Assembly (NCBI GenBank): GCA_044892505.1
Contig: CM097882.1
Coordinates: 283,978,896 to 284,024,000, forward strand
Origin: Schmidtea nova
Taxonomy: Eukaryota
Direction: 5' to 3'
Length of the DNA stretch: 45,105 bases
The notes under the pieces are model-generated. The model was not told the origin of the DNA and did no database searches. It saw nothing but the letters and a program-made list of their open reading frames with translations. Shown piece by piece: positions 9,773-45,105 of the stretch. A program made the position numbers and the translations under genes. Positions within the stretch are counted from its first letter, which is position 1, and each line of letters begins with the position of its first letter.

Positions 9773-12700
9773 CAGGCCTTATTTTAAGGAATTTTTATCA
9801 CTGCACAAACGGTAGTTTTTTCAGACGTGCCTTGATTGACGAGCCGGGAGTTATATACCCCTCCATTGTAATGACAACAGCCCCCTCCAAAATTTTGAAA
9901 ATTTGGGTACATGTGTGCATTCATTATACACACCACACACCCCAATGGAGGTGAACCCCCCCCCCCCCCCCGAGGTGGAATTTCTGGCGGAAATCCTGTT
10001 GAGGAGAATTCCCTTCTAAAACGGTGTTTGATCTAAACTGGTCAGTTTTGGAGGTGCAACATCTACATATTTAAGACCACTTGGGAGATTTGTGTTTTTG
10101 AGGGTATAAGGAAACACATCTTGATTAAACACTGCCTCTAAAATTGACAATGTAATAAATTGGTTTTACCTTTATGTCTGCACAAAATGCTGAGTAAAAT
10201 TTTAAAAGGAGCAAGAAGCTAATTTTCAATTTCGATACCTATATCGAGCAACAAGAATGTTTTCAATTAAAAGATGTTTGTCTTTAAAAGTTTTCCATGA
10301 CTCATTGTTCAAATATGAATGTTAAATGATCGGAAATGCCCTCCAATTTGTTTGATTAATAATATAAACAACAACACTAAACAGATAATAATAATGAAAT
10401 TGATACAAACACAAGATGTGTGCGTGTGTATGAGAGAGAGAGAGAGAGAATAAACACAGAGAAATCATAGAAACATGACATGCATCAAAATTTCATGTTT
10501 TTTAATTTCATATCAAATGTTTCCGTTTCTTCTGTGGGACAGGGGGATATGAAAATGTTTTTTAACCATTCTTGGTCTTGAGTCTTTGGAGTATCTCGGA
10601 CTCTTCTGTTTTTCGCAGTCATCCATTTCATCACCGCAGGCCGTGGGTCGAAGGCAGAGAGAGGTGGCATGTTCATAAAAATGTGCAGATAGTTTTTAAT
10701 CGTTTTCCTATTCAAACAAGAGCGAGAAGAAGTTTTGAGTAGATTGTATGCTGATATAATTCTTTCACAGTCAGCAGAATGGAGCTTGCATACCAAAATC
10801 CGGCTGAACACTTTAGCTAGCTCATCATATTACTCAGACTTGCACATTTGCTGGAGTGTCTCCAAAGGTTTTTTGTTCTCGTTGCGACTTTGCAAAACAT
10901 CCGTATATTGGTCATTAATCGTAGCCAGGTCAAGGTCAGGAGCAAATGTGTGAAGAACACTCCGTATATTCTCATTGTTCGCCTTGAACGTGACAAAATT
11001 TGTGGTGACATTTGTGTATGTGTCACTGAGAGCAAGTCGAGATTCCATGAAATGTTTTATTGTTAGAACTGTTTCTTGACGAACAGCAGAAAAGTCTCTT
11101 TCTTATGACACAAACATATTTCTCGCAATCATTCGACGTTCTTTTTCCCAAAGTTAAACACCATGTAAAACATTCTCAGGCGTAAGATTCTCGCAGAGAG
11201 CTTCTTCCCATTCTCCAAGCAGAGGTTTTCCTTGTAAAGTTTCCAGCTTTTTGAGAAAATGGGACACTTCTTTGGGCAAGTCGACAATGGTGATTGAGTC
11301 AGACTGCAACCGCTTTTGAAAATTAGTTAGGAGAAAAATTAGATCAGCCATGAACGCCATCAGTTGGATATTTGTTTTGTTCGATAACATTTTCCCAAAT
11401 TTCTTGTTTTGAGAACCTTCCACTGTGCTGAAATACTTTGTTAGAGCTCGCCAGGAAGAGAGAACAGCATCCAAGAGTGAGTGAGAGAACTGAGCCCAGC
11501 GAACTTCAAAATATTTTGGTAGACGTCGAACTGTCAGTCCACTTTCGTTGACAACTATTTCGAGCTCGGTTGAATGCTTAGCGCTCATATGAAAATAAGT
11601 GGATATACCAGAAACCTTCTCGAGTAAATGAGATATGTCTGTCACATTTTTGCATAGATCCTTGAAAGCCAAAGCCGAACTATGAACACCACAGACGGAT
11701 TTAAGTAAGGGCAAACTGCTTTGTCGCTCTTTTCGTTCTCGATCAAGCAAAGGCCAGAGGCCTTCATGTTTCCCGACATTTTTTGGTTCTCCATCCGTCG
11801 ACAAGTGTGTGATTATGTTTAATAAGGCATCAAAACCAACTGTTTCTTCTGATTCTTCTTTGATTGCCTTTAAATGTTCAGTTGCTCCACTTTCTGGGAC
11901 TTGCCCGATGCCAATGAATAGTAAACGTTCATGGCCATTGGGATTTATCGTTTTCATCAGTTCGAACTGGTTCTCTTTTTGAGTGCGATCCATCGAAGAA
12001 TCAAACCGAGAGGAGGCAGCAAGACATGTTTTGACCTCACGCTTGAAGCGTGGCATATCCGCCACTACGATTGCTTCCATCATCTCGTGCTGTGACAGAG
12101 GAGAAATATATTGTAGGTCTATGTTGGGTGATGAGAAAGGAGTGAATGGCTCATTAATGTGGAATAATTTAGACATTTCCTCAGCAACTACGCGAGATGG
12201 GAAAGAATAGGTTGAAATTGTTAGATTTTTGGCATCATTGTACACATGGTACATCAGTCCACCGATTTTATCGGCAAGAGTAGTATTCATTTGGTTGATT
12301 GATTTAATAAGAGGAACTTCTTGAAGTTTTTAAGACATTGATAGCGACGCAAGACAAGCTGCTTTATAACTCTCCTCATGGATGTCACTATTCAAATGTA
12401 TTTTAATTACCTCGCTTCGATGTTCAGTCCCACTTTCAGTGCATATAGGCGGTAGCCTCTGCCTGTAACAGAACCGTTTAGCAGTGTCTTGTTGTTCTAT
12501 ACAAATACGGTATCGCACACGTTTGCACTGGCCTTTGTGGTTTGGCACATTTTCGACGCACGAGAAGGCAACTGGTGATTTATGATCAACAGAGTTCTGT
12601 AGCGCAATAGACGAAGAATCAGTTGTTTCAATGGAATCCGTATTCTCAGACACATCACACCTAGAATCAGTAGACACATGAGGATCAATACACTTCTGTG

Positions 12701-13490
12701 ACACAATGGACGAAGAGTCAGACGATTCAAAATTATCAATGGAGTTCTCGGCTACAACACATGAAGAACTGGTTGATGGAATAGATTCAATAGAGTGCAA
12801 TTCACTGACTGAAGGAATGTTTGGAGATGGTTTAAAAAAAGCGAAGATGTTCGTTTGGATAGACATTACAAGAACACCTGAGCTAATTCAATCACAACTG
12901 AATGCTGGAAAATGAATGCACGGACAGCGGAAAAATAACTAGTGCGTGGTTCACAAACTGGTTGTAGGCGAGTCTACTGTTTAAAAATGGCCAAAGGAGG
13001 GTATGCTTCAACACTTAAACGAGGGAGAGGAGACAGTAGACTGAATTCAAGCACATTTTATTCACACGCATGGGTTCCATTCCCGTATTAGATAATTTTA
13101 TAAACTACACTATGTATTCATAAAAACGTTGTATGTAAACCTAATTCCATAATCAGCAAATTCTATTCACACCTTCACACAGACAAAAGTATCAGAATTA
13201 CGTGTGTAGGGGTTATCAATCGCTAGCGTGTGTATACATTGTATTAAATATTTTGACAGGACTGTCTGTGATAGGCGAAAGACAAACAACTCTCTCCATA
13301 AGGTCTGTTTTGCTTATAGATGAGGCGCCTCACTATCATGTGATTGAAATAAGGACCAATCGCGTGAAATTAACAGGAGAGCAATGTCAATATGATAAGA
13401 AATTAACGCTAATTCAAAATTTCTAACAAAAACAGTACATTTTATCACTGCACATCTTTCATTTATCACTGCACGTTAAAATAAGGCCTG
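9773..13490 (-). mobile_element. Full-length hAT DNA transposon (ZNF862-like transposase)
   Basis: 15-bp TIR CAGGCCTTATTTTAA / TTAAAATAAGGCCTG; 8-bp TSD GTTTAAAG (9765-9772 and 13491-13498); subterminal TTATCACTGCAC repeats. Confidence 0.95.
10485..12866 (-). pseudogene. hAT transposase, about 793 codons in one frame with 4 internal stops
   Basis: ORFs 12330-12866, 11154-12290, 10830-11048 and 10485-10811 share a frame. Motifs: RFDSSMDR, LSTDGE, VCGVHSSALA, EVRW, HSADCERIIS (hATC). Confidence 0.92.
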
Positions 13491-17386: not shown

Positions 17387-17822
17387 TGTAGTGCCTCCGT
17401 CATATATATCTTTATATTGTAATATATTAAAAATATTCATTTATGTTAAATTTAACATATTCTTATATATAAAAACACAAGTGAGTTGTTTAAATATCCA
17501 AATAAAACCAGCAGAATTTAAAATTAGAAGAAAAAAAGGACTTGAAGCATTTCAAAGCAGAATTTAAAATTAGAGGAAAAAAAGCACTTGCAGCATTTCA
17601 AAGTAGAAGAAAATAAATCACTTTAAGAAAATGTATTCAGATATAGATTTGCAACCTGCTACTGTTGTAGCGCTACAAAAACTCAGATGTTTTCTCACGG
17701 ATACTAAAAAGAACAAGCAATGTTACTTAAAAATAAATATTTTATTAGTGTTTATTTTGTATTTTATCTTTTATCCGATTATGACAAATACAAAACGGGG
17801 TATAGAAATACAGAGCCCCACA
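17387..17822 (+). repeat. 5' LTR (436 bp, TG...CA)
   Basis: TGTAGTG...CCCCACA; direct repeat of 20176-20602; contains an internal ~46-bp duplication. Confidence 0.92.
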
Positions 17823-17824
17823 AT

Positions 17825-17835
17825 TGGTGTCAGAA
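17825..17835 (+). promoter_or_regulatory. Primer binding site, tRNA-Leu type
   Basis: TGGTGTCAGAA, 2 nt after the LTR-terminal CA. Confidence 0.85.
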
Positions 17836-18431
17836 CTGACCACTACAGTCCAATGTTTCAATCACATCAAAATTCTATGCCTCCTCAATCAACGATTAAT
17901 CAACAGCCTGACCACTTTGTAATCGTAGCTTCGCAATACCAATCATATTCTGAGCAACAATTGCCCATTAATACTACCAATAACGGACCTATACAACGGA
18001 AAGTTCACCAAATAAGTTATCAACATTGAGCAGCATCAAATGTTAATGCACAAATGCAATTCCAACATCAACATCAAGTATCTCAACCGATTAGTCCTAG
18101 GAGTACAGATGCTTCTAATCACCAAAGCGACATGTCAGAAATTAACTATACCACAGCAGTGTCAATTTCAAGCAACCAACCAAATTATATTATGTTTCCC
18201 GATGCAAACCACATGGCAATATGTATTATTTATTATATTTATATTGAAAAAATTTTATTTATATTTATCATAATTTTATATATATTATTTAATAAATTTA
18301 TTTATAAAATTACCCTTCCCGTTTTCTCTATTCCGCCTTTCTTTCGCCCTTTAACTCCAAAACACACTCATAATCCTAACCTAGATCCAATACACGATAA
18401 CGATTCTTTCGCCAAAACCACACCGATACTA

Positions 18432-19511
18432 CCAGCCTATATCCTCACGCGTTTTAATAACAGAATGCGGGAAATCGCCGTTACTTCCGATATACACGCC
18501 GACATTGACACATCGCTTCGCATTGACAAGACCTCATTCTACGTGTCGTGCAATGGTTCTTTAGTCTCCTCTTCTACCCAGCTACAGTCTAATTCAATCT
18601 TGGACATCAACTGTCACATCCTAGGAGGTGGTAGAATCACAACAGAGCTATTTTTCTCATCCGGATTCCGCTCTATTCTGTTTTTTCTGGACCCGGGCGG
18701 TACACCTTCTTCGTGGTTTCGGATCTTTGAAGCGCGTACGTCTTCCTCTCCAAATTCACGAGCAGATTACCTCCTCGACAGTTTACTTGCCGAATTGATA
18801 GCCGAACTAGCCCCGAAAATTGCTGATGCTCTTGACGCAGGAAATCTATACGAAAGCTTAAAAAATCTAATTACGACCAAACACACTTCTTCACAGACCC
18901 AAGCTCTAAAAAAACTATTGGCGCCACAGATTTACTCAGGCCAACAGCCTAGTCTCTTTTTGGGAGAGATAGTTCGTTCAAACGATGCGGCAGTATCCGG
19001 TCTTTCTAAAAACGCACCTATTCCTTTCTGCACTCCCCTACCATCTACAAACTTTTCTGGCATTGGTTGACTCTGAAGATCCATATCACCTTGCGAAGAT
19101 TGCTGACAGCATTCACGCACTGCAACCATATAAACCCAGCGGAGATATTTACGCAGCACCTCCACTACCCCACCGTTAACGCAGCGCATACACTTCATAA
19201 CCCTTTCCTCGGACAGTTGAAAGATATCCCAACGACACTGCTCCATCACATGATGCACAGCATCCCAATCACCTACCAACAACACGCGCACAAAACATGC
19301 AATCAATAACAGCGCCACACTAATCTGTTTTTATCATAGCAGATTTAGACAGCATGCACAAAAATGCTGCATCGGTTGCATGTCTGAATTTCGCCCCCAT
19401 CAAAGTCCAACCATTCCAGTTTGTATCCATCATCATCTCTTCAAGAACGATGCCAGATCGTGCCTTGACGGATGCACATGGCGCACAAGCGACTACCATC
19501 CACCAAAACAC
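18432..19511 (+). pseudogene. Ubiquitin-like domain fused to Gag with two C-x2-H-x8/9-C-x3-C fingers (frameshifted)
   Basis: Ubl ..SFYVSCNGSLV..LQSNSILDINCHILGG (18432-18629); Gag PSSWFRIFEAR..QQPSLFL; FLSALPYHLQTFLA..LAKIADSI (18985 frame); ICFYHSRFRQHAQKCCIGC and VCIHHHLFKNDARSCLDGC. Confidence 0.8.
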
Positions 19512-20163
19512 TAATCAAGTCATCGGATATTTTTGGACGCTACGATAACTCCCCGCCAGTGAATTGCCTTTCTCACAGCCAACCATGTCCAACGCATACA
19601 CGATTAACTCCGTCAGCTAGCATCATATCAGAAACAACCACTACTCTCTCCACAGTACTATTTTCTCACACAACACCACCACCAATACCAATACAGGAAC
19701 CAACACTAGAACAAGAACCAACCAGCTCACCTCGCACAACACTTGCAAGAGCACCAACAAAAACTTCACCCAGCACACCGCACACAGCACCATCCGCATC
19801 ACTACCAGCTGCAGCATCCATAATACCATCAAAAACACCACTAACAATACCACAAGCATCGCTAACCTTTTCCGACAACGAAACCCACACAGACTACACA
19901 CACATTCTACCACAGTCGCCACAAACCGCATTTCCGTCATTGCTCTCACCAACACTTATCGTCACGATGGAAACATACTCGTCCTTTTCAATACTACCTA
20001 CCGCTTTCATCGCAGACACATCTTGCTCATCATCCGCCCTAGCCGCGAAAGGTACACACAAACTGCTCTCCGGTATAAGAACAATTGAGTTTCGTCCTCC
20101 AAGTATTTTTTACTCCGACCCTTGAATACCGTTTTGTCTTTTCCCATACGCTTGGCGTACTTC

Positions 20164-31570: not shown

Positions 31571-32197
31571 TTGATTTTCGTTAATAATAGCGATTACAAA
31601 ACAGCGATTACAAAGATAGCGAGTAGTTAAAAATAGCGACCACAAAACAAAGATTTAATATAAATTTTTCAATTTAGATAAATAGTATATAATTGACAAA
31701 GTTATATCACATAAACTGTATTTCAATGAAAAATTCATTCGAAAATCAAAAATGATATGATTTTATAAAACTATAATCAAAATTTATTAATTAAAAATTA
31801 AAAAATAACAATATAAAATAATAATAATAATAATGATAATAATAGTGTTGGGCCCACCAATTGGTCTAAAAAGACAAAAATATTGTACTAATTCAAACAA
31901 TAAATACAAATAATAACCACAAAAACATTCGAAAAACCTAAATTAAAAAATCAAAATAAAATAATAAATAATAATTACTAAATTTCCAGCAAAGGAAGAA
32001 AATCAAATTGACACGGGAACGAGCAGTATGGGGATCTGAAATAAGAAAATTACAAATAAAATCAAATAAAAGTACAATTAATTGGTTAATTACTTGAAAA
32101 AATCAGGACCACCCAGCGAGAAATCTGAACCGGAAATTTAAAATGGTTTATATTAAAATAAAATAACAAAATTACTTTGATGGACGGCCTGATCCTG

Positions 32198-32232
32198 ATT
32201 GGTCAATCTGACCAACTGGATCAGTATAAATA
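32198..32232 (+). promoter_or_regulatory. Candidate LTR promoter: inverted CCAAT plus TATA box
   Basis: ATTGG at 32198-32202; TATAAATA at 32225-32232. Confidence 0.5.
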
Positions 32233-33150
32233 CCGATCCAAAAATCATACAGATACCCTAAAAACTTAGCTACCGAACTGATCTATAACAGTCAGTTACA
32301 TCAACTTTGATACGACAAATATTGTGTAAAATTTTGGAAGCGCTGCATCTTGGATTTAAAGAGTAAATTTTGTTGTATTGTATTTGAACTAATTTTATGA
32401 TATGTTTTACATGATTCCCATTCATTTCATTTCATTTAATATAATTTATTACTATTAATTGCTCTATTTTCTTATGCTATTATTTTATGATATGATAAAT
32501 ATACTTCCTCAGTAGCTCACGCTGCGAGGGAGTAAGCCGTAAATGTGGGATTTCACCGTTCCACAAGATGGTGAGCAGAGTTTCTATTGGTATTTTTTTA
32601 TTTAATTTAATTTTTTATCAGAGGTTTAACTTTACAGTAAAGTTGTACAGGGACAAGAACACGGGTAAAATTAGTAGACAGTGTTTAACATTAGTTAATT
32701 AACGTTCGATCAGACAGGAGAGAATAAACTACAGTATCAATTATCATGTCAACTAAATCGATTTCGCATATGCACACGATTTTTTCGAATCCACATAGCT
32801 GATCGAAATAATGTCCGGACACACCGAGACGATTTCGACATTTCAACGATAGTTTTAATTAAGATATAAATAACAACATAATCAGATTGACACTACTGAT
32901 TGAATAACTAAAACCGTAACCTGATCGCTGTAAATAGCGCAGGTGATAATATGTAAATTTTTAATAAACGTATCCCGATCGCTGTATATAGCGACGGTGT
33001 TAATTGAATAGCTTAGAAAATTTTTTTTTTATTCCTCCTTTTCATATTTTTTTTGTTTTGTTGATCAACGAGAGGAGCACATTTCATCAGGTCTCACCAA
33101 AATTTGCGGATTCGTCACAGTAAATTTTATTAGCATTATTATTTTCTCAG

Positions 33151-33651
33151 ATGAAATCAACGATACTGGATGAATTTCTAACAACCCAACGTCGTGCGGC
33201 ACGGGACGAAAATCCTCTAATCCGGACGCAACAGAAGAAATTGAAGTCGCTTCCACAGGAACTTCTAAGAACGCTAAATGCGTTGATGTACAAGTGGAGA
33301 CGGGAACTGGGAAAAAAATGTCCATTTTCGATTTGGACCGGTGGATTAGATACCATCATATATCGAGGAGGCCCCGGATGGAAAAGTTCAGACGAAAGAG
33401 ACCCCGAAACGACAGCTCGATTCATCATAGTGTTGACGGACATCGCAGGCAACCCAACGACCGTAATCCACTGGGGATATGTCTCACCGCTCAAGTTGCT
33501 TCGATTTGGTTTGATTCCGAACCACCTACTGAAAACGGACCATGGACGCCCCAAACTAAACTGTTCAATGGCTCACATCCGACGAGATCCAGTCAATCAC
33601 GGGTTGCATATTACCCCCGTTCACGGCCTCAAGCGAAGCGTTTTTCACTAA
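33151..33651 (+). CDS. Intact 166-aa hypothetical accessory protein inside the probable LTR
   Basis: ATG-to-stop ORF, GC-richer than its flanks; no recognisable motif. Confidence 0.55.
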   Translation: MKSTILDEFLTTQRRAARDENPLIRTQQKKLKSLPQELLRTLNALMYKWRRELGKKCPFSIWTGGLDTIIYRGGPGWKSSDERDPETTARFIIVLTDIAGNPTTVIHWGYVSPLKLLRFGLIPNHLLKTDHGRPKLNCSMAHIRRDPVNHGLHITPVHGLKRSVFH

Positions 33652-33803
33652 AAATTCTATTCACATTACTATGAACTAAATGTTTTCTATAAATTAAATG
33701 GTGTTGATCTGTGTTTTGTTTGTTATTAGTTAAATTTCTATCTATTTATTTAATTATACAATCTTTTACACTTGACGGATAATATTAGTCGTTGGTAACA
33801 TAA

Positions 33804-34427
33804 TTGCTGCATCATAAAATAGGTTTGTTATTTAGTATGACAGAAACCAGCCAACAGCGGGAATTGGATAAGGCGTGGAGAATCCGCCGAGCATTAGAAA
33901 AGGAGTTAAATCAAGAGAAAGCATTTCGAGCCAAGGCAGAAGCTCAGATCCAGCATTTACGGACCAGCTGGTTCGCCCCAGCTCGCATGAAGGAGCAGAT
34001 AAGTCGAACGGATAGGGCTCAAAAGACAGCTGACGACTATCGTACCGAATGGGAAGCAACAAAAATTGAGTTGCGCCGATGTCTCCATTCGGTGACGACT
34101 TCTTTTATCGAGTCCGAATTGAGATCACAAATCCGACCTATCACCTACCAGAAATGGGTAGGAGAACAGAAAGTGGCCTGCTCGGTCAGTACGGACACCG
34201 ATGGGCTCGAGACAACAACAGTGCAGAGTCGGGTGGAAACCACCACTGCATCAAACCCCGTCGGAAAAATGAACAAGCGAAAACGAATCGGCTCCAAACG
34301 CCGTCGCCAAAGAAAGCTGTTTTCTCAACAGTTGCAGACACAAGTGACCACTATGGCCGAAATGTCGGAAGCCGAGTGGTTATCCGAGATATTCCCTCCT
34401 GAAGGAATCTTCAAAGAATTTCTGTAG
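33804..34427 (+). CDS. Intact accessory protein: coiled coil, basic NLS, acidic-hydrophobic C-terminus (likely ATG at 33837)
   Basis: RELDKAWRIRRALEKELNQEKAFRAKAEAQIQHL; KRKRIGSKRRRQRK; EMSEAEWLSEIF. Confidence 0.6.
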   Translation: MLHHKIGLLFSMTETSQQRELDKAWRIRRALEKELNQEKAFRAKAEAQIQHLRTSWFAPARMKEQISRTDRAQKTADDYRTEWEATKIELRRCLHSVTTSFIESELRSQIRPITYQKWVGEQKVACSVSTDTDGLETTTVQSRVETTTASNPVGKMNKRKRIGSKRRRQRKLFSQQLQTQVTTMAEMSEAEWLSEIFPPEGIFKEFL

Positions 34428-34917
34428 CAGATAGAAACATAATATGATGTCAGATTTTGGAGTTAATTAAATCTTTGCTCGTTTTGTTTTGTTGTTGTTA
34501 TTTCCTATGTATATTCTTCGATTACATAATTCATATAATTAAATTTACCTTACCCGTCACACAACGAAAGGAGTAGCGTTAAAGAATTAGAATATCATCG
34601 AATTCGTAGTTTCGTTTTGCTTGTTTTTTTTTGTTTTTATGATAAATATAGAACATCACACACACAATGGAACAATAATTGCGTAAGTCCTTCTACGGCC
34701 GCGTGAACCCGTAAACATAAAGGGGGAGTAGTCCTAGCAATAGTGCTCACGTGCCCCTCATTGTTTAACCACCCTGCGCATCCCCAACTTGGTTATCAAG
34801 GGAAATAATCAAGGGCGCTCGAGTGTAACTTACGACTATTTATGCATGATCATGGATGGGAGATCCCTAGCAATCATTAGAATTTTTACCAAACCGTCCA
34901 TGAACCCAGCATAAATT

Positions 34918-34935
34918 TGGGGGCTCAGCCGGGAC
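34918..34935 (+). promoter_or_regulatory. Primer binding site, tRNA-Pro type
   Basis: TGGGGGCTCAGCCGGGAC versus canonical tRNA-Pro PBS TGGGGGCTCGTCCGGGAT (15/18). Confidence 0.85.
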
Positions 34936-35248
34936 TAGCTTCGTTTTATCGGAAAAATGTGAATGCAAAATCTGCAGAGAAGTTTAAAGTGCTCGTGTCG
35001 TGTGAATAAATTCAATAAAAACAGAGAGTTTATAATTAAATCTAAATTCTGAACAAAAATAAACCACAAACACAACAGTAATAAAAGTAAAGTTATAAAA
35101 ATCAAATGCATGTATAAATAATTTGTCGGGACGACAATTTTAGGAAACACGGGGAGAGTAAATAAATATTAAAGATACAAAACGAAACATATTACTACTT
35201 TAAATAAATATTAAAAGACACAAAACGAGACATATTACTACTTTAAAA

Positions 35249-35752
35249 ATGATAAAAACAACAAAGTTAAAACGATTATTTATTCAGCAAATGGAGGAAA
35301 AACTGAAAGAAATCGAAGAATTTCTTAACACAGAAAACGAAACATTAGCAACAATTGGCAAGAAAATAAACCGATTTAGAGAAATTGAATTTCAAGAACC
35401 CACAACACAGACCGAGGAAACAGATGAATTAATAAAGATAACAGAAAGAACAAGTAAAATCGACATAAAAACCCGCTACAAATGGTACAGAGCACGACTA
35501 GAGAATGCGGAGCTAAACATTAGATGCAGACAAATAGAACAACAATTAACCCCAACATACAATCGATGGAGGGCGCAAGGGGTAGAAGCAGCGAAAAAAT
35601 ACCGACAGTGCTATATATGTGAAAACAACGAGATACAAATTATGTTTTTACCTTGCGGACATTTCCGTTTTTGTAAGATCTGTGCCAGCAAGTGTGACCG
35701 GTGTCCGATGTGCAACTTTACTGTGAATGAAAAAATTGTAGTTTATTTGTAA
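35249..35752 (+). CDS. IAP-type C-terminal RING (C3HC4) E3 ligase with N-terminal coiled coil, no BIR
   Basis: CYICENNEIQIMFLPCGHFRFCKICASKCDRCPMCNFTVNEKIVVYL* versus XIAP [46 protein letters not shown] overlaps the stop (35751-35756). Confidence 0.9.
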   Translation: MIKTTKLKRLFIQQMEEKLKEIEEFLNTENETLATIGKKINRFREIEFQEPTTQTEETDELIKITERTSKIDIKTRYKWYRARLENAELNIRCRQIEQQLTPTYNRWRAQGVEAAKKYRQCYICENNEIQIMFLPCGHFRFCKICASKCDRCPMCNFTVNEKIVVYL

Positions 35753-36219: not shown

Positions 36220-36312
36220 GTTATTAGAGTTGTCCCTTGAAACAAAGGGTTATTAGCGGTTTGTCCCTTGAAACAAAGGGTTATTAGCGGTTTGTCCCTT
36301 GAAACAAAGGGT
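36220..36312 (+). repeat. 31-bp tandem repeat, ~3 copies
   Basis: TGTCCCTTGAAACAAAGGGTTATTAGCGGTT at 36231, 36262 and 36293. Confidence 0.95.
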
Positions 36313-36313
36313 T

Positions 36314-36582
36314 GAGGCCAATGAGCCATATTGAATGACCTAGCTAGGCGTTATGGAGAGATATTAAATTGAGGCCAATAGAGCCATGCGAGAGATTAAA
36401 TTGAGGCCAATAGAGCCATATGAGAGATTAAATTGAGGCCAATAGAACCATATGAGAGATTAAATTGAGGCCAATAGAGCCATATGAGAGATTAAATTGA
36501 GGCCAATAGAGCCATATGAGATATTAATTTAAGGCCAATAGAGCCATGTGAGATATTAAAATTGAGGCCAAAAAGAGCCATA
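36314..36582 (+). repeat. 32-bp tandem repeat, 7 copies plus a partial, nearly all with GGCCAAT
   Basis: (G/A)AGGCCAA at 36371, 36403, 36435, 36467, 36499, 36531 and 36564 (last copy CCAAA). Confidence 0.95.
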
Positions 36583-37190
36583 GAGAATTATAGAGATATC
36601 CGGATAATTAGTAACAGAGGGAATATAGGCCATAGTTGTGATCGGCAACGAGATTAAGAATAGTGCGCACTAGTAGTTAAGAAATGCGAGTAAAGCTGAT
36701 TATGCAACCTGAAGTAAAGCATGCAAGGAGAATAATAAAAAATTAGAGCTGACCGGAGAAACCGGCAGACTAGGTAAAACGATAGCTAGCAATGAGTAAT
36801 GAATAGAGATGATAAAATAATGATAAACGAGTCAGAAAGACTCAGGGAATTAGAGCGCTCAAGCGACCAATAATTGGGAAATTGTGGGAAAAGTAATTGA
36901 TTTGTAAAATATAGATAATTATTACGACATAAATAGATAATTGTGACCAGTCTATAGATAATTTAAATAGACTAAAAATAAAGGGAAATCTGGGGATTGG
37001 GAAATAATGAAAACCCGGTAATAATTAATCCCGAAAGAAAGGGAATAAAAGCGCGACGATAACAATAATGTATCGTTGAGGACCTTTGTATTTTAGATAT
37101 ACAAATCAATCAAATCAATCAATCAAGCAAGAAGAATCAGAACACGATAAGAAATAGGACAGGAAAATTGAGTATACAAAAGTAATCCCG

Positions 37191-38570
37191 TTGAGAACAG
37201 GAGTAAAGAGTGTCGTAATAAAGCCAACAGAAAAGAAAGTCGGCAGTGAGAGTAACAAAAAAGACAAAACTAGTACTACCACAAAATCAGCAAAAAAGCA
37301 GAAAGCCGGCAAAGATAACAACAAAAACCCACAAGGGAGTAAAGCGAGGAAGATAATAAGAGACAAATCGATTATCGAAAACGATAAATTGTCAGTAGTA
37401 AGCAACAGCTCAAGTAACAAAGAAAACCAAGCGGAACCCAAGGAGAACCAAACAAGTGAAATAGAAATCGACGAAACTAACAACGATAATATCGAAGAAG
37501 TAGAAAACGAGGTAGAACCAGAGGTAGAAATCAACGAGAGTGATAACGAAAGTATAATATCGGATAACGAAGTAATAAGAGAAACAGAAAGCGACTCAAG
37601 CTCGAGTGAAACAGAAGACGAACATAACAACGAACTAGAAACAAGAGGAAACGAAAGTAAAATAACTCAAGACAGCGGAATTGAAATGGGTGAACCAAGA
37701 GAAGAAATAAAGGATAAATTTTCAGGAGAACCATTTAACGGAGATGCGAGTAAATTAGAAACTTTTCTAAAGGAATTTGGCATATTCGTGGAGGTATGCA
37801 AGTGGAAAGCTGAAACAACAGTAAGCAGAATTCAGTTATATTTGAAAGATAGTGCATTGGACCTATATTTGGAAGCGAAAAATGGTACCAATCCACCTGC
37901 AAATTGGACAGCGATAAAGGATTTTTTCCAACAAACCTTTGGAATAAATAAAGTGCTAAGCGAGGCATTCATAGAATTTTCAATGAGGAAACAGAAGATG
38001 AATGAGTCTAACGCGGTATACGCGAGCGAACTGAAAAAATTAGCAAAATCGGTATTCAAGGATGGGGGTCCAATAAACGAGGAACTAATGGCAGCCATCT
38101 TCATAGGAGGATTAAGAAGACCCGACATAAGAGCGCAAGTGGGATGCCAAGGATGCAAAACCATAGATCAAGCGTTAGAAACAGCTAACCGATTCGAATT
38201 GCACATGATAGGAAGCGAGGGCAGAATTTACTTAGCCATGGACACAGCGCAAACCGAACAAGAGGTAAATCTCAACAATCACATCCCAAATTCGCAACAG
38301 TTAAACCGACCACCCCCTCAACGAAGGAATGAAGGAAATAAAGTGCAGAACTTTGGAAACCAAAACAATTACAACCCTCAAGGACAAACAAAACAATGTA
38401 AAACATGTGGAAAGTTGGGACACTGGCAGCAAGAATGCTATCAAAATTTGAATTGCGGAAAATGTGGGGTCAAAGGACATTCGGAGAGTAGATGTTCTAC
38501 GATAACCTGTTTTAATAGCGGACGACCTGGTCACTACTCAAGAAATTGTGGACAAAAAAGTAATCAGTGA
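37191..38570 (+). CDS. gag: Polyprotein segment 1: acidic N-terminus, Ty3/Gypsy Gag capsid, three CCHC knuckles
   Basis: PFNGDASKLETFL..LYLKDSA..W..IKDFF..KQKMNESNAVY..FIGGL; CKTCGKLGHWQQEC, CGKCGVKGHSESRC, CFNSGRPGHYSRNC (38397-38549); true start codon unresolved. Confidence 0.92.
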   Translation: MRTGVKSVVIKPTEKKVGSESNKKDKTSTTTKSAKKQKAGKDNNKNPQGSKARKIIRDKSIIENDKLSVVSNSSSNKENQAEPKENQTSEIEIDETNNDNIEEVENEVEPEVEINESDNESIISDNEVIRETESDSSSSETEDEHNNELETRGNESKITQDSGIEMGEPREEIKDKFSGEPFNGDASKLETFLKEFGIFVEVCKWKAETTVSRIQLYLKDSALDLYLEAKNGTNPPANWTAIKDFFQQTFGINKVLSEAFIEFSMRKQKMNESNAVYASELKKLAKSVFKDGGPINEELMAAIFIGGLRRPDIRAQVGCQGCKTIDQALETANRFELHMIGSEGRIYLAMDTAQTEQEVNLNNHIPNSQQLNRPPPQRRNEGNKVQNFGNQNNYNPQGQTKQCKTCGKLGHWQQECYQNLNCGKCGVKGHSESRCSTITCFNSGRPGHYSRNCGQKSNQ

Positions 38571-39860
38571 GGAAACTGGCAGAATAATGGAAACCGGCAA
38601 AATTACGGAAATCAAACAAATACCGTAAACCGACAAGATTATGGAAACCAACAAGTCCATAATAACCATAATCAGAACAAAACTACCACCAAAGAAATAC
38701 ATTTGATGCAAGAAGTCCAAAGGTTGACGGAACTTATAAACAACACGACGAGAGGAAATCCACAAACCAATCCACAGCAAATTAGTATGATGAGAAAAAT
38801 AGAAAGCGAAAACGAACGATTGAATCGAGAAAGTCAAGCACTACACGCTCAGGAATGGGCAAGAATACAAAGAGAAGATGAACAAAAACAGCAAGAAAGA
38901 GAGCGACAACCTCTAAGAATTAACATGTTGAGAGCAACAAATCAAACAGATACCCACGAGAAAGAAACCACATTAGAAATAAATTCGAATCCAACCGACA
39001 ATGGAAGTCGAAAAGGAGTAATACAAGACGATAAGGAAGCAGAAAAAGAAATAGAAAAGGAAGTAGAAACTGAGATAAACCAGGAAGAGAGGAGGAAAAT
39101 TTGGAAAAAAGGAATGATGGTAATCATGCCCAACAACCATATGTTTCGATTCCAATATAACACAAAAGAAGAGGTGGCAATACTGTTTAACAAAGTAAAC
39201 CAAATGGTTCCAGGAGTAACAAAACTGCCCAGAGAAGCGTTCCTACAAATAGACGGTGCGCCAGAAGTAAAGTTGAAATTAACGGATATATGGGAAAACA
39301 TGGGAGTAGTAGAAACAAAAAGAAACGTGATGATTATCAAAGAAATAGAACCAGAGAAAATCCCAGCACCAGTGCGTCACGAAACCCGAATCAGTCGAAT
39401 ATTTAAAGGAAAAATGATAAGAAGACGTTTGAAAGAGATAGACGAGTTGGAGAAGAAAATGAGAAAAGTCGAAGTAATAGAGGACAAGAGTGAACCAACA
39501 CCAGAGATTGACAAAAACGAACCAGAACGAACGGAGAATATACAGGGGGAAACGAACCAAATAGCACACATTAATATGTTAAGAAATACCACCAGAGAGT
39601 TTTCCGATGAGGAAGGAGATAGCGATATCAGTAGCCTAGCAGGAGACATATTAAACGAACCCGAAGACGAAAATAAAGAGAGAGAAGTAATAACGACCTC
39701 AGAACCTACACAGATAAAAGTAGATGAAATCCAGAAATTACTAGATAACTCGCTAGACGTAATATATAACGAAGAGTTCATGGACAAGAAACAATACCGG
39801 AAATTCATGAAAGCATTATTACAAATGAACTACAAAGAATGGTTACAAGACCGGAAGTAG
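38571..39860 (+). CDS. Polyprotein segment 2 (in frame with Gag after TGA): N/Q-rich, coiled coil, possible Ubl, acidic
   Basis: 38703-37191 is divisible by 3 and the frame is open from 38571; beta-grasp-like MVIMPNNHMFRFQYNTKEEVAILFNKV..LTDIWENMGV (39111-39338). Confidence 0.75.
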   Translation, partial: GNWQNNGNRQNYGNQTNTVNRQDYGNQQVHNNHNQNKTTTKEIHLMQEVQRLTELINNTTRGNPQTNPQQISMMRKIESENERLNRESQALHAQEWARIQREDEQKQQERERQPLRINMLRATNQTDTHEKETTLEINSNPTDNGSRKGVIQDDKEAEKEIEKEVETEINQEERRKIWKKGMMVIMPNNHMFRFQYNTKEEVAILFNKVNQMVPGVTKLPREAFLQIDGAPEVKLKLTDIWENMGVVETKRNVMIIKEIEPEKIPAPVRHETRISRIFKGKMIRRRLKEIDELEKKMRKVEVIEDKSEPTPEIDKNEPERTENIQGETNQIAHINMLRNTTREFSDEEGDSDISSLAGDILNEPEDENKEREVITTSEPTQIKVDEIQKLLDNSLDVIYNEEFMDKKQYRKFMKALLQMNYKEWLQDRK

Positions 39861-42040
39861 ACATGTTAAATCGATACGTAGGGAAATTAATAGAGGAACC
39901 ACTCCTCAATTACACCATCTCAATAATAATAAATACATCTACACCAAGAATCTGGATCAAAACTCCATTTACAGACGATATCTACAGATGGGTAGAGGAC
40001 AGGCTAGGTAGTTCATATAAAAACAAATTCATCTATTCGCAGAATAGACTCGTAAAGAAAAGAACGCATTTAGTAGAAACAGGTATATGGCCAGGAGAAG
40101 TAACCCTGTTATCAATATGTGATGAAAAGGAAGGAGAGAACCTACAAGAAGTTGCAAAGGAAGCAAACACGTGCTTTGAAAGGAGAATAAAACCACGGTT
40201 AGAATACGAGAAAGGACGAGTCTTACGAAAGAATCTAAATTCCCTGATAGAACAAATCATACCACAAGTCAAAAAACATAGAAAGGAGTTAATGCGAAGC
40301 GAATACGAGAAGCTGAAACGATGCATCGAGTGCATACGTGACACAAGTCACACGAGATGGTCACAGATCTCACACGACAAATTAATCGCAAAAATGGGAA
40401 AAACAATGTTCAGACAAGGGAAAATAACGGATCTAAAAATTTCAGTAGAGTTACCTAATGAGGACACCAAAGAAATTGAAGTGGTAGCAGATTGCACCAT
40501 AAGAGAATTAGTAAAGATCATAAACGAGACACTAGTGCAGACAGAACCAGAAGACGAATGGGAAGACGACATAATCATGAAATATAACGAACATGTATTA
40601 TGGGATCACGATGAGAGACGACTATATAAAATCGGTATATGGGATAATCACCAAACCATCCACGTTATCAGAATGGACGATACACCCAGAGAAACTGCTA
40701 AAGATGAGAAAAAAGAACGGGAACGACAAAAAGAAGTTATACACAAATTACAACAAATAGCAGAAATTTATCGAAATTGGCGGATTTGGCCGGAGTGGGA
40801 AAATGCATTAGAAGAACTCAATCTCAACAGACGAATACGAACATCCGTAGAAAAACAATGGAACGAGCAAGGAAAATGTTGGGAACCAAAAGAAGGGGAA
40901 TATAAAGAAGAATATGAAAGAGGAATGGAAGGTGACTGCGAACCAGAAATGGGAAGGGTTTGCATGGTGACAAGAAAAACTACGCCAATAGATCTAGATG
41001 GACCAGAAACAGCGGCTATATGGTTAGAAAAGGAAAAGCAAAAAACGGAAGAATTAGTCGAAATATTAAAAACTAATGCGCACGGTAAGAGAAAAGTAAT
41101 AAAAGGTCTCGCAGATTTTTTCGTGGTTAATGGAGAAGATGTAACATGCTTGCGTAAAGTAGCAAAAGCAATCGCAGAATATAAAAGAGTCAACGAGTGG
41201 TGTCCGGAACAACTAGACCACGTAATTAGGAAATGGAGAAATCAAGAATACTCGCAAGAAATTCCACAAAAAGTACATTTAAGAATAATATATCCAAACA
41301 AGGATAAGGAAGAATTTTGGGTAGGAATAGCAGAAAAAATTTGAGATATTAAAAAGAAATTGAGATACGAACCACCATTCCATTTACAACACCAAGGACG
41401 ATCACTAGATAACAGTTTGGAAATCTGAATAACGCCAGCACAACTAGATCTCATGAATACCTTGACAGTAGAAGCAATAGCAGGTCAACCATTGAAACGT
41501 AAAGAAGAAAACCATAAACCACACGGAAGTATAAGTACGCCGAGCCCGATGAAATCAGTATTAACGCAAGGGACAAGTTCAAAACGATCTGAGACAACAC
41601 CCAGAGGGAATAGAGAAAGGACTCCACCACAACCATATGACGTGGACGAAATATTAACAGACAGCGACGACATGATAGAAGAGCTAACCAAATTAACAAA
41701 GGAAAAAGACGACAACATTTTCGAAAGAATACAAGAACTACCTACGACAATACAAGTAACCAACACCGGAGAAGCAGAAGTCGAAGATGAAATAATAATA
41801 GAAGAAGTAAACGATTTGACAGAAGACGAAACGAGAGGAGCGAATGTACAATTAACACAAGAAATGGAAAGATGGTTGGAAGAAAGAGCCAACGAACCAA
41901 GAGATGTCACGGAAGAAACCGGACGGGCAACAAGGTTTGTGGAAACAGGTACAGGAATGGATAGACGACCTCGAGGTAGACCCAAGACAGATCCAGCGAA
42001 TGTAGTCATCAGAAATAAGGATGAAAAGAGACAAGATTAA
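39839..42040 (+). CDS. Polyprotein segment 3: ubiquitin-like domains plus acidic linker (two internal TGA)
   Basis: Ubl 40433-40675 LKISVELPNEDTKEIEV..TIRELVKII..IMKYNEHVL..LYKIGI..QTIHVI; weaker Ubls at 39911-40120 and 41273-41455; the frame continues across TGA 41342 and 41426 into ORF 41453. Confidence 0.75.
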
Positions 42041-42520
42041 TGGGAATTATGTTTAAAGAAATTAAATAAAATCGCGGAGATAAAAGAAAAAGAGACAACA
42101 CCAATATGTCAAGGGAAGGAATGGATATCGAAAACAATAATGGAAATATTGGCAATAATTGATCCGGAATTGAGAAAATACTGGCGGATAACTGAGATAA
42201 GCGAAAAGGCGAAGTCATTACACAGCGCAATCGCACCCATCTTACCGGAATTCATAAAAGAGAAAACTAAGTCAAATCATTTAGACTGGCAAGGAACCAC
42301 TACGTTAATAAAGAAACTGACAGAAGGAGCGGAAACAGATAACAAATACGTAATAGCCATTGCATACACTATTTACAACCTACTAACACTGAGTAGAGGT
42401 CGACCAAAACCCACTGCGTTGGAAAGACACATAAAAAATACCGCAAAAATTATAGCCAGAGAAATAGAACCATACATCATTAACAAAGGAGGATGGGAAA
42501 CATTTATCAAAACTAACCAG
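42041..42520 (+). CDS. Polyprotein segment 4: Bcl-2-like domain
   Basis: IKNTAKIIAREIEPYIINKGGWETFIK aligns with Bcl-xL alpha6-BH2 ([28 protein letters not shown]); helical pattern upstream; BH1 NWGR degenerate (DNKY). Confidence 0.7.
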
Positions 42521-42616
42521 AAGAAAACGCAAGCCAAGAACATGAAAAAGAAATTCGAAGAGATATTGGGAGAATTGGAAAAAGAACAAGCAGGAACAGG
42601 AAACGCGAAGTCGTCA

Positions 42617-44545
42617 ATGAACCTGAGTTCAATTATAATGATGATGTTGATATGGATGATTAGCACCGATAGCGCAACAGCGTTCGAAGTATTTGATTGC
42701 GATCAGATGGCATTAGGCGAAAAATATTCATTGCGAGGTACAGAGCAATGTAAGGATGCAACTCCAACGGAACTAAAGACAATACAAAAGAAACAACTCT
42801 ACCATGTGTACCAGGAAGCGGAATTGATAAAAACCATGGTTAGAGAGTGTAAAATTTATAAAACAAGATTCGCTTTCTATTGTGGACACCGTCATTATTC
42901 GGCAATCGTAATGCCAGGAACCGAAAGAGAATCAGTAATGCTGCAAGGAGAAGATTGCGAAAAATTGTTCAGACACGGGGAAATAGAAACAAGAGATAAG
43001 ATAAGATTGAAAGGGAAAGTTGGAGCGATATTACAACAAACCTTATACGTAGCAGCAGCTATCACAGGAGGAGAAGGCTATTGTCAAGGAGAAACCTACC
43101 CTATATTCGGAAAACCAGCAACGAACTTAGTGGTGATTGACACCTACACAGTAGAACTTAAAGCATACGAAGGATTCTTTGACCCAGCGACAGGAGAAAT
43201 GAAAACCCTGCCGATATGTAAGATAGACGCGAATACCTGCCAAACAGGCCTGTCAACTTTAACATACCAAACGCGAGGAAATGAATGTCAATTACAATTT
43301 TTAAAGCAAGCAGAATTCGATGAAATACAAGGAAAGACTTTCCAAGAGGAAGAGGAAGACGAAGTAGCAAGAGGAAAGATTCTCAAAGAAACAGTACAGG
43401 TAGAAGGAAAGATCGAAGCAACACAGGAAAAACAAATCAGAATGAGAAATACCCCAACGGTACTCATCTCCTCGGATGAAGATATAGGAATGAGATTCGT
43501 AAAAGGTAAAACAGCCTTGAAATGCGGAGTATCAATGTTAGAAACCAACTATCCCGGTATCTTCGTATCAAGACAAGATGTACCTAACGCAAAACGTCAA
43601 GTAAACACGAACGATGTTAAACTACACCTCTACGTAAACAATAAAATGGATTTCCTATTTCACAGAGGACAAGCTTCATTACAAAAGGTGTATTACGACC
43701 TTATTAACAACGATTGTATATTGAATAGAGAGATACTGAAAACAAAGTTAGCAGTGGCCATCACCAATCCAGACAGTGCAATGCCACTATTGCCACTAAG
43801 AGAAGGTCATTTTGGAAGAGTAGTTGGTGAAGTTATGTACGTATACATATGCAAAAAGACTAACGCAAAAGTTGCAACGGCGACAAAATTACAACCAGGG
43901 CAATGTACAAACGAATTAGAAATAGAATACAAAGGAAAAGTTAGATACGTACAGCCAGTAAAAAGAATTATAAATCCAGTAAGCTTCGAACCAAACCCTT
44001 TCAATTGCAGCAACGCATACGGACCATTATATCAAAAACCGGATGGAAATTGGGTTATGTTTCCCGCAAGAACGGAAGTACCAGCACCAAGAGAATTCGA
44101 ACTAATGCGATTATCGAAAAGACGAAAATTCAAAGACGTCGATGTAAGCAATATGGGATTTTATAGCGCGAAAGATTTAGAAGCAGCAAGACAAAATATA
44201 CTGTTCCCAGCAAGGAGAGAAGCGGTACTATCCAGTATTGTAACTATAACAGGAGGAACAAATTACCAAGGTGGACCCAATTATGAACTACTTTTATCAC
44301 CAGCTCATTTTAAGAAAGCAACTGAGAATATGATGAAAGCGATGTGGGGAAGGTTTTTGATTTTCGGACAAATGATGGCAGGAATACTTGGTGTCATACT
44401 AATAATACAAATAATACGGGTGGTCATAACACAAATGCTCGCGTGTTTTTATATTTACAAAAGAGAAAAGAAAGTCAACTGGAAATTAGTGTTAGGATTC
44501 TTACCATTTCTGGCTAAAACCATGGTGTTACAGATGAAGAAATAG
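42617..44545 (+). CDS. env: Polyprotein segment 5: internal signal peptide plus chuvirus-like (class III, gB-like) envelope glycoprotein
   Basis: IIMMMLIWMISTDSATA|FEVFDC; LYYDL..C.LNREIL..LA..NPD..GH..VVGEV.Y...C; QP..RII; GFYSAKDL; FPARREAVL; W..FLIFG..AGILGVILII TM; all follow chuviral G patterns. Confidence 0.85.
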   Translation: MNLSSIIMMMLIWMISTDSATAFEVFDCDQMALGEKYSLRGTEQCKDATPTELKTIQKKQLYHVYQEAELIKTMVRECKIYKTRFAFYCGHRHYSAIVMPGTERESVMLQGEDCEKLFRHGEIETRDKIRLKGKVGAILQQTLYVAAAITGGEGYCQGETYPIFGKPATNLVVIDTYTVELKAYEGFFDPATGEMKTLPICKIDANTCQTGLSTLTYQTRGNECQLQFLKQAEFDEIQGKTFQEEEEDEVARGKILKETVQVEGKIEATQEKQIRMRNTPTVLISSDEDIGMRFVKGKTALKCGVSMLETNYPGIFVSRQDVPNAKRQVNTNDVKLHLYVNNKMDFLFHRGQASLQKVYYDLINNDCILNREILKTKLAVAITNPDSAMPLLPLREGHFGRVVGEVMYVYICKKTNAKVATATKLQPGQCTNELEIEYKGKVRYVQPVKRIINPVSFEPNPFNCSNAYGPLYQKPDGNWVMFPARTEVPAPREFELMRLSKRRKFKDVDVSNMGFYSAKDLEAARQNILFPARREAVLSSIVTITGGTNYQGGPNYELLLSPAHFKKATENMMKAMWGRFLIFGQMMAGILGVILIIQIIRVVITQMLACFYIYKREKKVNWKLVLGFLPFLAKTMVLQMKK

Positions 44546-45105
44546 GACGCAAATTTAAAAAGATAATGAATGACGAACAAGCAAGACAACAGCTCAAGAG
44601 AGAAAGAAAAGGTTTATGGGAGAGGATGAAAGGATATAAAACCCAAAATGATTCGAGCGACGACGATGATGACGATGATGACTATAAAGGAGGACAAGTG
44701 TATAAGAACCAAGCACCACAATACATCGAAAAGAACCCAGCTGACGCATGGAAATGTTACGCACCCCCACCAACAATGTATCAAGAACCACTACAAGGAG
44801 GAAGAACGACCACGATGCAAATGATGCCAATGACGAATGTATACCCCATGATACCAGAAGATTATAAAATGAGAAGATGCAGAAGTGTGGATCCACAAGG
44901 AGATACGCATACGATCGCCGTGATGTCATCAAACACAGGTCCAGTACTAACCACGACAATAGAAATTAACGGAAGAGAAATCGAAGCAATAATCGACACT
45001 GGAGCAAATATTTCCGCCATCGACATCAAATGGATACCACAAGAGCAAAGACGGGATATAGAAAGGACGAACGTCCACGTAATTGCATGTAGCAAAGAAA
45101 TTGTA
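44518..45105 (+). CDS. pol: Polyprotein segment 6 (-1 frame): cytoplasmic tail and start of retropepsin; runs off the window
   Basis: Open frame absent from the ORF track (no stop): NHGVTDEEIGRK...GPVLTTTIEINGREIEAIIDTGANISAID; DTG at 44995-45003. Confidence 0.9.

Follow-up and report, generated by a model that had tools for sequence, protein, structure and literature searches.

The window, i.e., the whole stretch of 45,105 nucleotides of Schmidtea nova DNA that was analysed, contains part of a Burro-like gypsy LTR element of 29,289 bp (about 29.3 kb), which spans the window and the neighbouring genome stretch (Table 1). The LTRs of the element are 3,066 bp each, have TG...CA ends, and are 99.6% identical; a 4-bp target duplication (ATAG) was found, and the 3' LTR lies ~13-16 kb beyond the end of the window. 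Two ORFs at window positions 33804-34427 (+) and 33124-33674 are internal to the LTR, occur in both LTRs and were assigned to no family; a ~202-aa counterpart is present in the three sister copies read. A primer-binding-site-like stretch begins at 34918, 6 bases beyond the 5' LTR, and runs to 34934; we take it to resemble the 3' end of tRNA-Pro. The leader before gag carries tandem arrays of 31 bp x2.7 (36230-36313) and 32 bp x7.3 (36358-36590). Elsewhere in the window, the remnant of a Pogo/Tc5-type DDE_1 transposase was found at 4823-5815 (-) (E 1e-44), together with GC-richer ORFs at 11154-12887 (-), 17607-19070 (+) and 19469-20125 (+), which have no or weak Pfam matches (DUF7041, E 0.0013, for 18030-19070) and probably belong to other mobile elements.

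Table 1. Features of the element within the window (window positions).
Feature	Position	Strand	Evidence or remark
5' LTR, 3,066 bp, TG...CA	31846..34911	+	LTR comparison, target duplication
Accessory ORF, C3HC4 RING finger	35204..35752	+	Pfam PF13920, E 4e-11
Gag (zinc knuckles) and long unannotated, partly acidic polyprotein region	37158..42040	+	broken in the window copy
Bcl-2-like helical domain, ORF residues ~20-161	42098..42523	+	profiles, fold search, pN/pS
Degenerate BH1 position, TDNK replacing NWGR, basic residue kept	42323..42367	+	alignment
BH2 motif EPYIINKGGWETF, ORF residues 143-155	42467..42505	+	GGW invariant in 9/9 element families
Linker, partly predicted helix (pLDDT <50)	42506..42616	+	AlphaFold model
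Predicted Env signal peptide, polyprotein-internal; h-region at 42632-42661, with Ala in positions -3 and -1; cut predicted behind 42682	42617..42682	+	
Env ectodomain, Monjiviricetes/gB-type (chuvirus-type) fusion glycoprotein	42683..44371	+	Pfam PF24664, E 1e-70
Env C-terminal transmembrane segment	44372..44428	+	KD19 2.55
Pol start, aspartic protease (DTGA)	44518..45105	+	after frame change near 44518-44545 in the window copy

The stop-to-stop frame 42041-44545 encodes 834 amino acids, of which the front is Bcl-2-like and the remainder is a fusion glycoprotein of the Monjiviricetes type. The match of this Env to PF24664 reached 238.8 bits against a cut-off of 27, and both the xxx[YF]DC start and the C-terminal transmembrane segment (TM) are present. 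Pfam analysis revealed Gag zinc knuckles in frames upstream of 42041 and the aspartic protease in the next frame downstream, and beyond the window come, after the protease, reverse transcriptase (RT), RNase H and integrase with the ankyrin repeats behind them. The giant polyprotein cannot be made from the copy in the window, which is broken: stops are present at 38568, 41342, 41426 and 42038, one more lies beyond the window, and the frame changes near 39854 and 44518-44545.

A search of the genome (G000) yielded 1,189 candidate copies, and all 150 that were scored had 94-100% identity. Open frames of >5,600 aa are present in more than 30 of these 150 (as counted from the table of copies), and single frames of 5,666-5,687 aa were found in 3/3 sister copies read. 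The domain order in one scanned sister copy was Gag, Bcl-2-like domain, Env, protease (PR), RT, RNase H, integrase, ankyrin repeats, and further hydrophobic segments. The stop at 42038-42040 was seen in only one of the 55 copies read. A preliminary description of this DNA had let the domain begin at 42041; because the stop just before it is private to this copy, that start is an accident of the copy, 42041 was rejected as a gene start, and the Bcl-2-like domain is internal to the ~5,680-aa frame. The same description had overlooked that the copy is broken, that the domain would end a Gag-containing precursor, and that the BCL2-env arrangement had been published (PMC6431247).

The published elements are the Burro/GYPSM1 gypsy-like LTR elements of planarians, which are described as larger than 30 kb, with long LTRs and one polyprotein of ~5,000 aa; they have a BCL2-like motif, and env lies in frame between BCL2 and protease, i.e., between gag and pol (PMC6431247). 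A Gag with CCHC knuckles, a mononegavirus-glycoprotein-like env, and ankyrin, MATH/TRAF, RING, BIR and dUTPase-like domains are also reported there. The present element shares the size of ~30 kb, the long LTRs, the giant ORF (3/3 sister copies read), the order BCL2-env-PR-RT-RH-IN and the ankyrin, MATH/TRAF and RING domains, all three of which were found with the element by Pfam. It differs in its ~5,680-aa frame and in the placement of a MATH/TRAF ORF 3' and a RING ORF 5' of the polyprotein; Burro-1 to -4 were compared by their description. For a Burro element of planarians, BURRO1, a rise in expression upon smedwi-2 RNAi is reported (PMC8532177). BIR and dUTPase domains were not found by Pfam at E 0.05, and in the Burro paper some were detected only by HHpred. 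In the sister copy at L020-L021 (residues ~4530-5630), six more hydrophobic segments follow the integrase and the ankyrin repeats; several are signal-like, they lie within Cys-rich repeats without a Pfam match, and they possibly represent a second set of membrane proteins. The ORF 3' of the polyprotein (L021:2698-4113) encodes a TRAF zinc finger and MATH, and is followed by ORFs of 362 and 201 aa of no clear family.

An equivalent Bcl-2-like domain was found at the same place in four more families of the genome (B, L039; C, L040/L070; D, L062; E, L069) and in four polyproteins from outside (P0004, P0005, P0010, P0015), giving nine families in all. With identities of 15-25%, the layout of BH2, linker, h-region and xxx[YF]DC recurs in all eight, and given this recurrence the order BH2-linker-signal-Env is beyond chance. 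Beside the window family, the genome thus holds four or more families in high copy number (L039-L059, L060-L089, L090-L098), with single frames of 3,000-3,400 aa that combine a Bcl-2-like domain with an in-frame Env; the LTRs are 99.8-100% identical in the three read. A different polyprotein, P0006 (Env-PR-RT-IN), is labelled by its source as a hypothetical protein of Flavobacteriaceae and is likely to stem from an animal retroelement whose DNA was binned with a metagenome.

The relationship of the domain to Bcl-2 was assessed with sequence profiles and with a predicted fold. Taken alone, the window domain is marginal, with Pfam E values of 0.09-0.14, 13.8 bits against the curated PF00452 cut-off of 31.4, and a best phmmer match to Bcl-xL at E 1.2. 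The positionally equivalent domains of families B (34.8 bits) and C (35.1) lie above the cut-off, and those of D (20.5) and E (23.4) below it. A nine-row profile made only from elements matched Bcl-xL over the BH1-BH2 span with E 3e-7, in a search in which two designed coiled-coil bundles took ranks 1 and 3. After removal of the two rows that had been picked via a Pfam Bcl-2 search, the seven-row profile still matched Bcl-xL with E 2e-4, mostly over BH2. Word-index homologue searches returned nothing for the domain or for residues 1-420, and contributed only P0015 to the alignment; the ESM Atlas search gave no usable match.

The AlphaFold model was built from 21 rows of the window and G000 families (five families, without the four outside proteins), which makes it shallower; its mean pLDDT is 51, with 60-70 in the BH1-BH2 helices and <50 after residue 144. 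A single-sequence model of the domain had a pLDDT of 41 and was unusable. When the 21-row model was compared with a set of 48,161 chains, the 21 best-ranked rows all belonged to the Bcl-2 family (Z 5.8-7.8, rmsd 3.2-4.4, 104-128 residues aligned), among them the viral proteins KsBcl-2, BHRF1 and A179L. Even the best row (Z 7.8, rmsd 4.1, 127 aligned, on a model of pLDDT 51) stays below the tool's caution line, so that the weight rests on the unanimity of the rows and on their agreement with the sequence profiles. Foldseek gave no row at E 0.001 against PDB or BFVD; above that value, all 45 of the rows listed for PDB and the first-ranked row for BFVD were Bcl-2 family. The weak single-sequence Pfam values and the Z values below 8 would fit a helical bundle that is not related to Bcl-2 and has its GGW by coincidence. 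This reading is largely refuted, and hardly credible, in view of the sister-family domains above the Pfam cut-off, the match of a profile with no row picked by a Bcl-2 search, and the uniform top 21 structural rows. The claim of a Bcl-2-related domain, now placed at 42098-42523, is supported by the profiles, by the Pfam matches of two sister families, by a fold search with a weak model, and by the low pN/pS of shared variants given below.

Of the BH motifs, the GGW of BH2 is invariant in 9/9 rows, and the first W of W..GGW is a Y in the window family. The motif had been noted before with a span (42461-42508) two codons too wide in front and one behind. The earlier statement that NWGR of BH1 is lost was correct: the aligned position reads TDNK, and across the nine rows the Gly is absent in 9/9 and the Trp in 8/9, with the basic residue kept in 7/9. 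The Gly of NWGR matters for BH3 binding. Family C had been a candidate for keeping BH1 as NWDR, which was rejected, as the Trp is present in only 1/6 family C copies read. In the Bcl-2 loci that we label host-like, the BH1 Trp is kept in 7/8. These short-frame loci (L030-L038, L041, L049, L051, L055, L058) resemble host genes; several have a divergent BH1, and some are near-duplicates carrying stops. In a tree of five element and seven host-like domains, a single origin was seen in 49% of the bootstrap trees and the window domain was the longest branch, and a 12-domain tree of this kind does not allow the donor to be named. In the poxviral protein DPV022 no BH motif can be recognised, yet binding to Bak, Bax and Bim is retained (PMC11209288), and roles of Bcl-2 proteins independent of the groove are described (PMC7022251); thus, the loss of NWGR does not exclude a role in death or stress signalling.

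The second feature of interest was the hydrophobic segment in front of Env. As had been described, a hydrophobic stretch with A-x-A (LSSIIMMMLIWMISTDSATA, 42623-42682) directly precedes FEVFDC, which begins at 42683. It does lie downstream of BH2, at a distance of 39 residues (from the motif to L195) instead of ~35. The segment has a 10-residue core, a polar c-region (STDSATA), and Ala at -3 and -1. A search of representatives returned polyproteins and many stand-alone G proteins, the latter with a signal peptide at the N-terminus in front of xxx[YF]DC. In 47/68 of the stand-alone proteins (selected for an M-start, 560-800 aa, and the motif within the first 48 residues), a cut three residues before the [YF] of [YF]DC fits the -3/-1 rule, taken as a small residue at -1 and a small or aliphatic one at -3; other offsets fit at most 14/68. 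The same register was found in 7/9 polyproteins with and 8/10 without the Bcl-2-like domain, and ATA|FEVFDC falls in it, in agreement with the earlier prediction of an internal signal peptide cut at ATA|F.

The ten polyproteins in question contain the same internal segment without a match to the element Bcl-2 profile (4/152 proteins match); several are fragments, and some may have a more distant Bcl-2 domain. In a quick, midpoint-rooted Env tree, the deepest polyprotein branch is without Bcl-2, and the supported branches force at least three trait changes. This distribution shows that the Bcl-2-like domain apparently comes and goes across relatives and that the signal peptide stays. Because the register is common to the stand-alone G proteins, and because the segment is also present in Bcl-2-less polyproteins, the segment is, on this comparative evidence, a feature of Env, homologous to the signal peptide of stand-alone G proteins. 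The median hydrophobic core is 10 residues with Bcl-2, 11.5 without it, and 9 in the stand-alone proteins, and four measures of length and hydrophobicity revealed no significant difference between the three groups (p 0.075-0.78). The preliminary description had regarded the segment as the tail anchor of the Bcl-2 domain, a label that is not supported: the sole candidate for a dedicated C-terminal tail anchor is the homologue of the Env signal, which is neither longer nor more hydrophobic where Bcl-2 is present. The KD19 value of the window segment is 1.45, the second weakest of the nine families, and that of its own Env TM is 2.55. Families D and E have cores of 18-19 residues with KD19 values of 2.3-2.45, which true TMs also reach (median of 1.99 for the TM of stand-alone proteins), on a scale that is blunt and separates signals (1.74) poorly from TMs.

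Selection was analyzed with 55 copies, read from 150 listed, and pN/pS was based on variants common to at least three copies, with doubletons excluded. For the Bcl-2-like domain it was 0.04 (55 synonymous and 9 non-synonymous shared variants), for the linker 0.15, and for the hydrophobic segment 0.06 (9 variants), all with a downward bias of pN, because the copies had been ranked on protein identity over 42041-42682. The values for Env and for the upstream acidic region, which is conserved too, were 0.05 and 0.09, respectively. As read from these shared variants, the ratio shows purifying selection on the Bcl-2-like domain in a recently spreading family. Among the 55 copies A214 is kept in all, and A212 and the Met at -22 (M193, 42617) in 54 each.

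Taken together, it is fairly probable that the segment acts as the Env signal and is cut at ATA|F, and that the Bcl-2-like domain ends a Gag-side precursor that is tethered to the ER until a second cut. Upon co-translational insertion, Gag and Bcl-2 would stay on the cytosolic side, Env would enter the ER lumen, and Pol, which follows the Env TM, would again be cytosolic. After the cut at ATA|F by signal peptidase, the Gag-side precursor would hang on the signal peptide. Later it may be released from the ER by the protease of the element or by signal peptide peptidase (SPP), as in the cases of flavivirus C and HCV core; no second (releasing) cleavage site was identified. In families B, C and E the integrase is followed by a second signal-like segment and a TM, with a small ectodomain between the two. 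This fits such an alternating topology, and internal signals seem to be a habit of the element. The Bcl-2-like domain might tune cell-death or stress signalling of the host, probably not via a canonical NWGR groove. Such a role is suggested because RING, TRAF/MATH and ankyrin domains keep it company, and it has already been proposed for the Bcl-2 of these elements (PMC6431247).

Four properties would agree with the version of the preliminary description, in which the segment persists after cleavage as a tail anchor and leaves a lasting ER-anchored Bcl-2 mimic. The domain lies 49-79 residues before the cut in 9/9 families, as expected for a tail anchor; most Bcl-2 proteins are tail-anchored, and Bcl-xL without its anchor loses activity (PMC7022251); the segment is conserved, if pN/pS is read from its few shared variants; and the cores of D and E have TM length. 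By topology, moreover, tethering would be the first state after cleavage, and to this extent the earlier proposal of a Bcl-2 part that is held at the ER after cleavage stands; this part would lie on the cytosolic side and end in the segment. However, the segment is no longer than in Bcl-2-less relatives or in plain signal peptides, it predates or outlasts the Bcl-2 domain, and the window family has only the 10-residue core with the polar c-region. The analogy to the flavivirus capsid anchor, also drawn before, is apt with respect to the shared internal segment and not with respect to a lasting anchor: in flaviviruses NS2B/NS3 removes anchor C, and in HCV the signal of core is cut away by SPP (PMC7601889). 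Because the anchor is removed in both cases, a transient anchor is favoured; by this analogy, release by the element protease or SPP is likelier than retention, and lasting retention is rather unlikely, with families D and E as the place where it is plausible from core length.

A start of Env on a separate RNA would make the attachment of Bcl-2 dispensable. If the main source of Env were a spliced or subgenomic RNA with its start at Met 42617, it would have an ordinary N-terminal signal, and M193 indeed gives a textbook signal of 22 residues, with the Met nearly always kept among the copies and a Met at -22 also in family E. In family B and in P0010, the stretch from BH2 to the cut contains no Met, so that such a start is not general; in P0004 the only one is at -1, and in the sister copies the open frame continues across the junction. 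We regard this as improbable. No GT..AG joint was seen among 15 of 22 joints listed (contigs from four runs, library unknown), which has no bearing on splicing. The segment could also be an uncleaved signal-anchor, with the Bcl-2 domain staying as the cytosolic N-terminal tail of Env, since gB-type ectodomains are reported to lie either between a signal peptide and a TM or between two TMs (PMC13524379). The conservation of the -3/-1 pattern in one register across all three groups of proteins and the retention of A214 and A212 among the copies argue against it, and we consider it very improbable. A bolder reading combines a lasting ER tether with activity against cell death: a captured Bcl-2 fold placed directly before an Env signal would, by signal peptidase alone, yield a membrane-anchored viral Bcl-2 that has no tail anchor of its own, the tether would hold Gag at the ER and the Env TM would carry Pol, so that one chain would supply Gag, Env and Pol for packaging and the host cell would be guarded from death during particle assembly. 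As a whole, this reading is unlikely.

Several known systems resemble parts of the proposed arrangement. As in flavivirus anchor C and HCV core-E1, one internal segment would end a cytosolic upstream protein and target a downstream glycoprotein (PMC7601889). In contrast to these viruses, what lies upstream is a Gag-side precursor with a Bcl-2 fold at its end, and the second cut, documented there, is conjectural here; the element would thus work alike and is not a member of the group. GAG-ENV-POL errantiviruses with an HSV/gB-type Env are described from Nematoda, Bryozoa and Platyhelminthes (PMC13524379), and share the gene order, the type of Env, and an ectodomain between signal peptide and TM; the main text of that paper, as far as accessible, mentions neither Bcl nor Burro nor a polyprotein. 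The Bcl-2 proteins that large DNA viruses encode (KsBcl-2, BHRF1, A179L, F1L, DPV022) likewise combine a Bcl-2-like bundle with decayed BH motifs (PMC11209288). They are stand-alone genes, some with a C-terminal TM of their own and shown to bind BH3 peptides, whereas the domain described here is embedded in a retroelement polyprotein. The accessible descriptions of Burro (PMC6431247) contain nothing on a signal peptide or topology, and no discussion of the segment between BCL2 and Env was found in the openly accessible literature searched.

The type of element and the order BCL2-env are already published, and the finding is mostly known. A modest addition is a testable topology for gag-env-pol polyproteins, with the Gag side on the Env signal peptide and Pol behind the Env TM. 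It is also added that the Bcl-2-like domain appears to be under purifying selection and to be gained and lost across relatives while the signal peptide persists. The review of viral Bcl-2 proteins, in its accessible part, covers dsDNA viruses only (PMC11209288); should the domain turn out to block cell death while tethered to the ER, it would count as a viral Bcl-2 that works from within a retroelement polyprotein.
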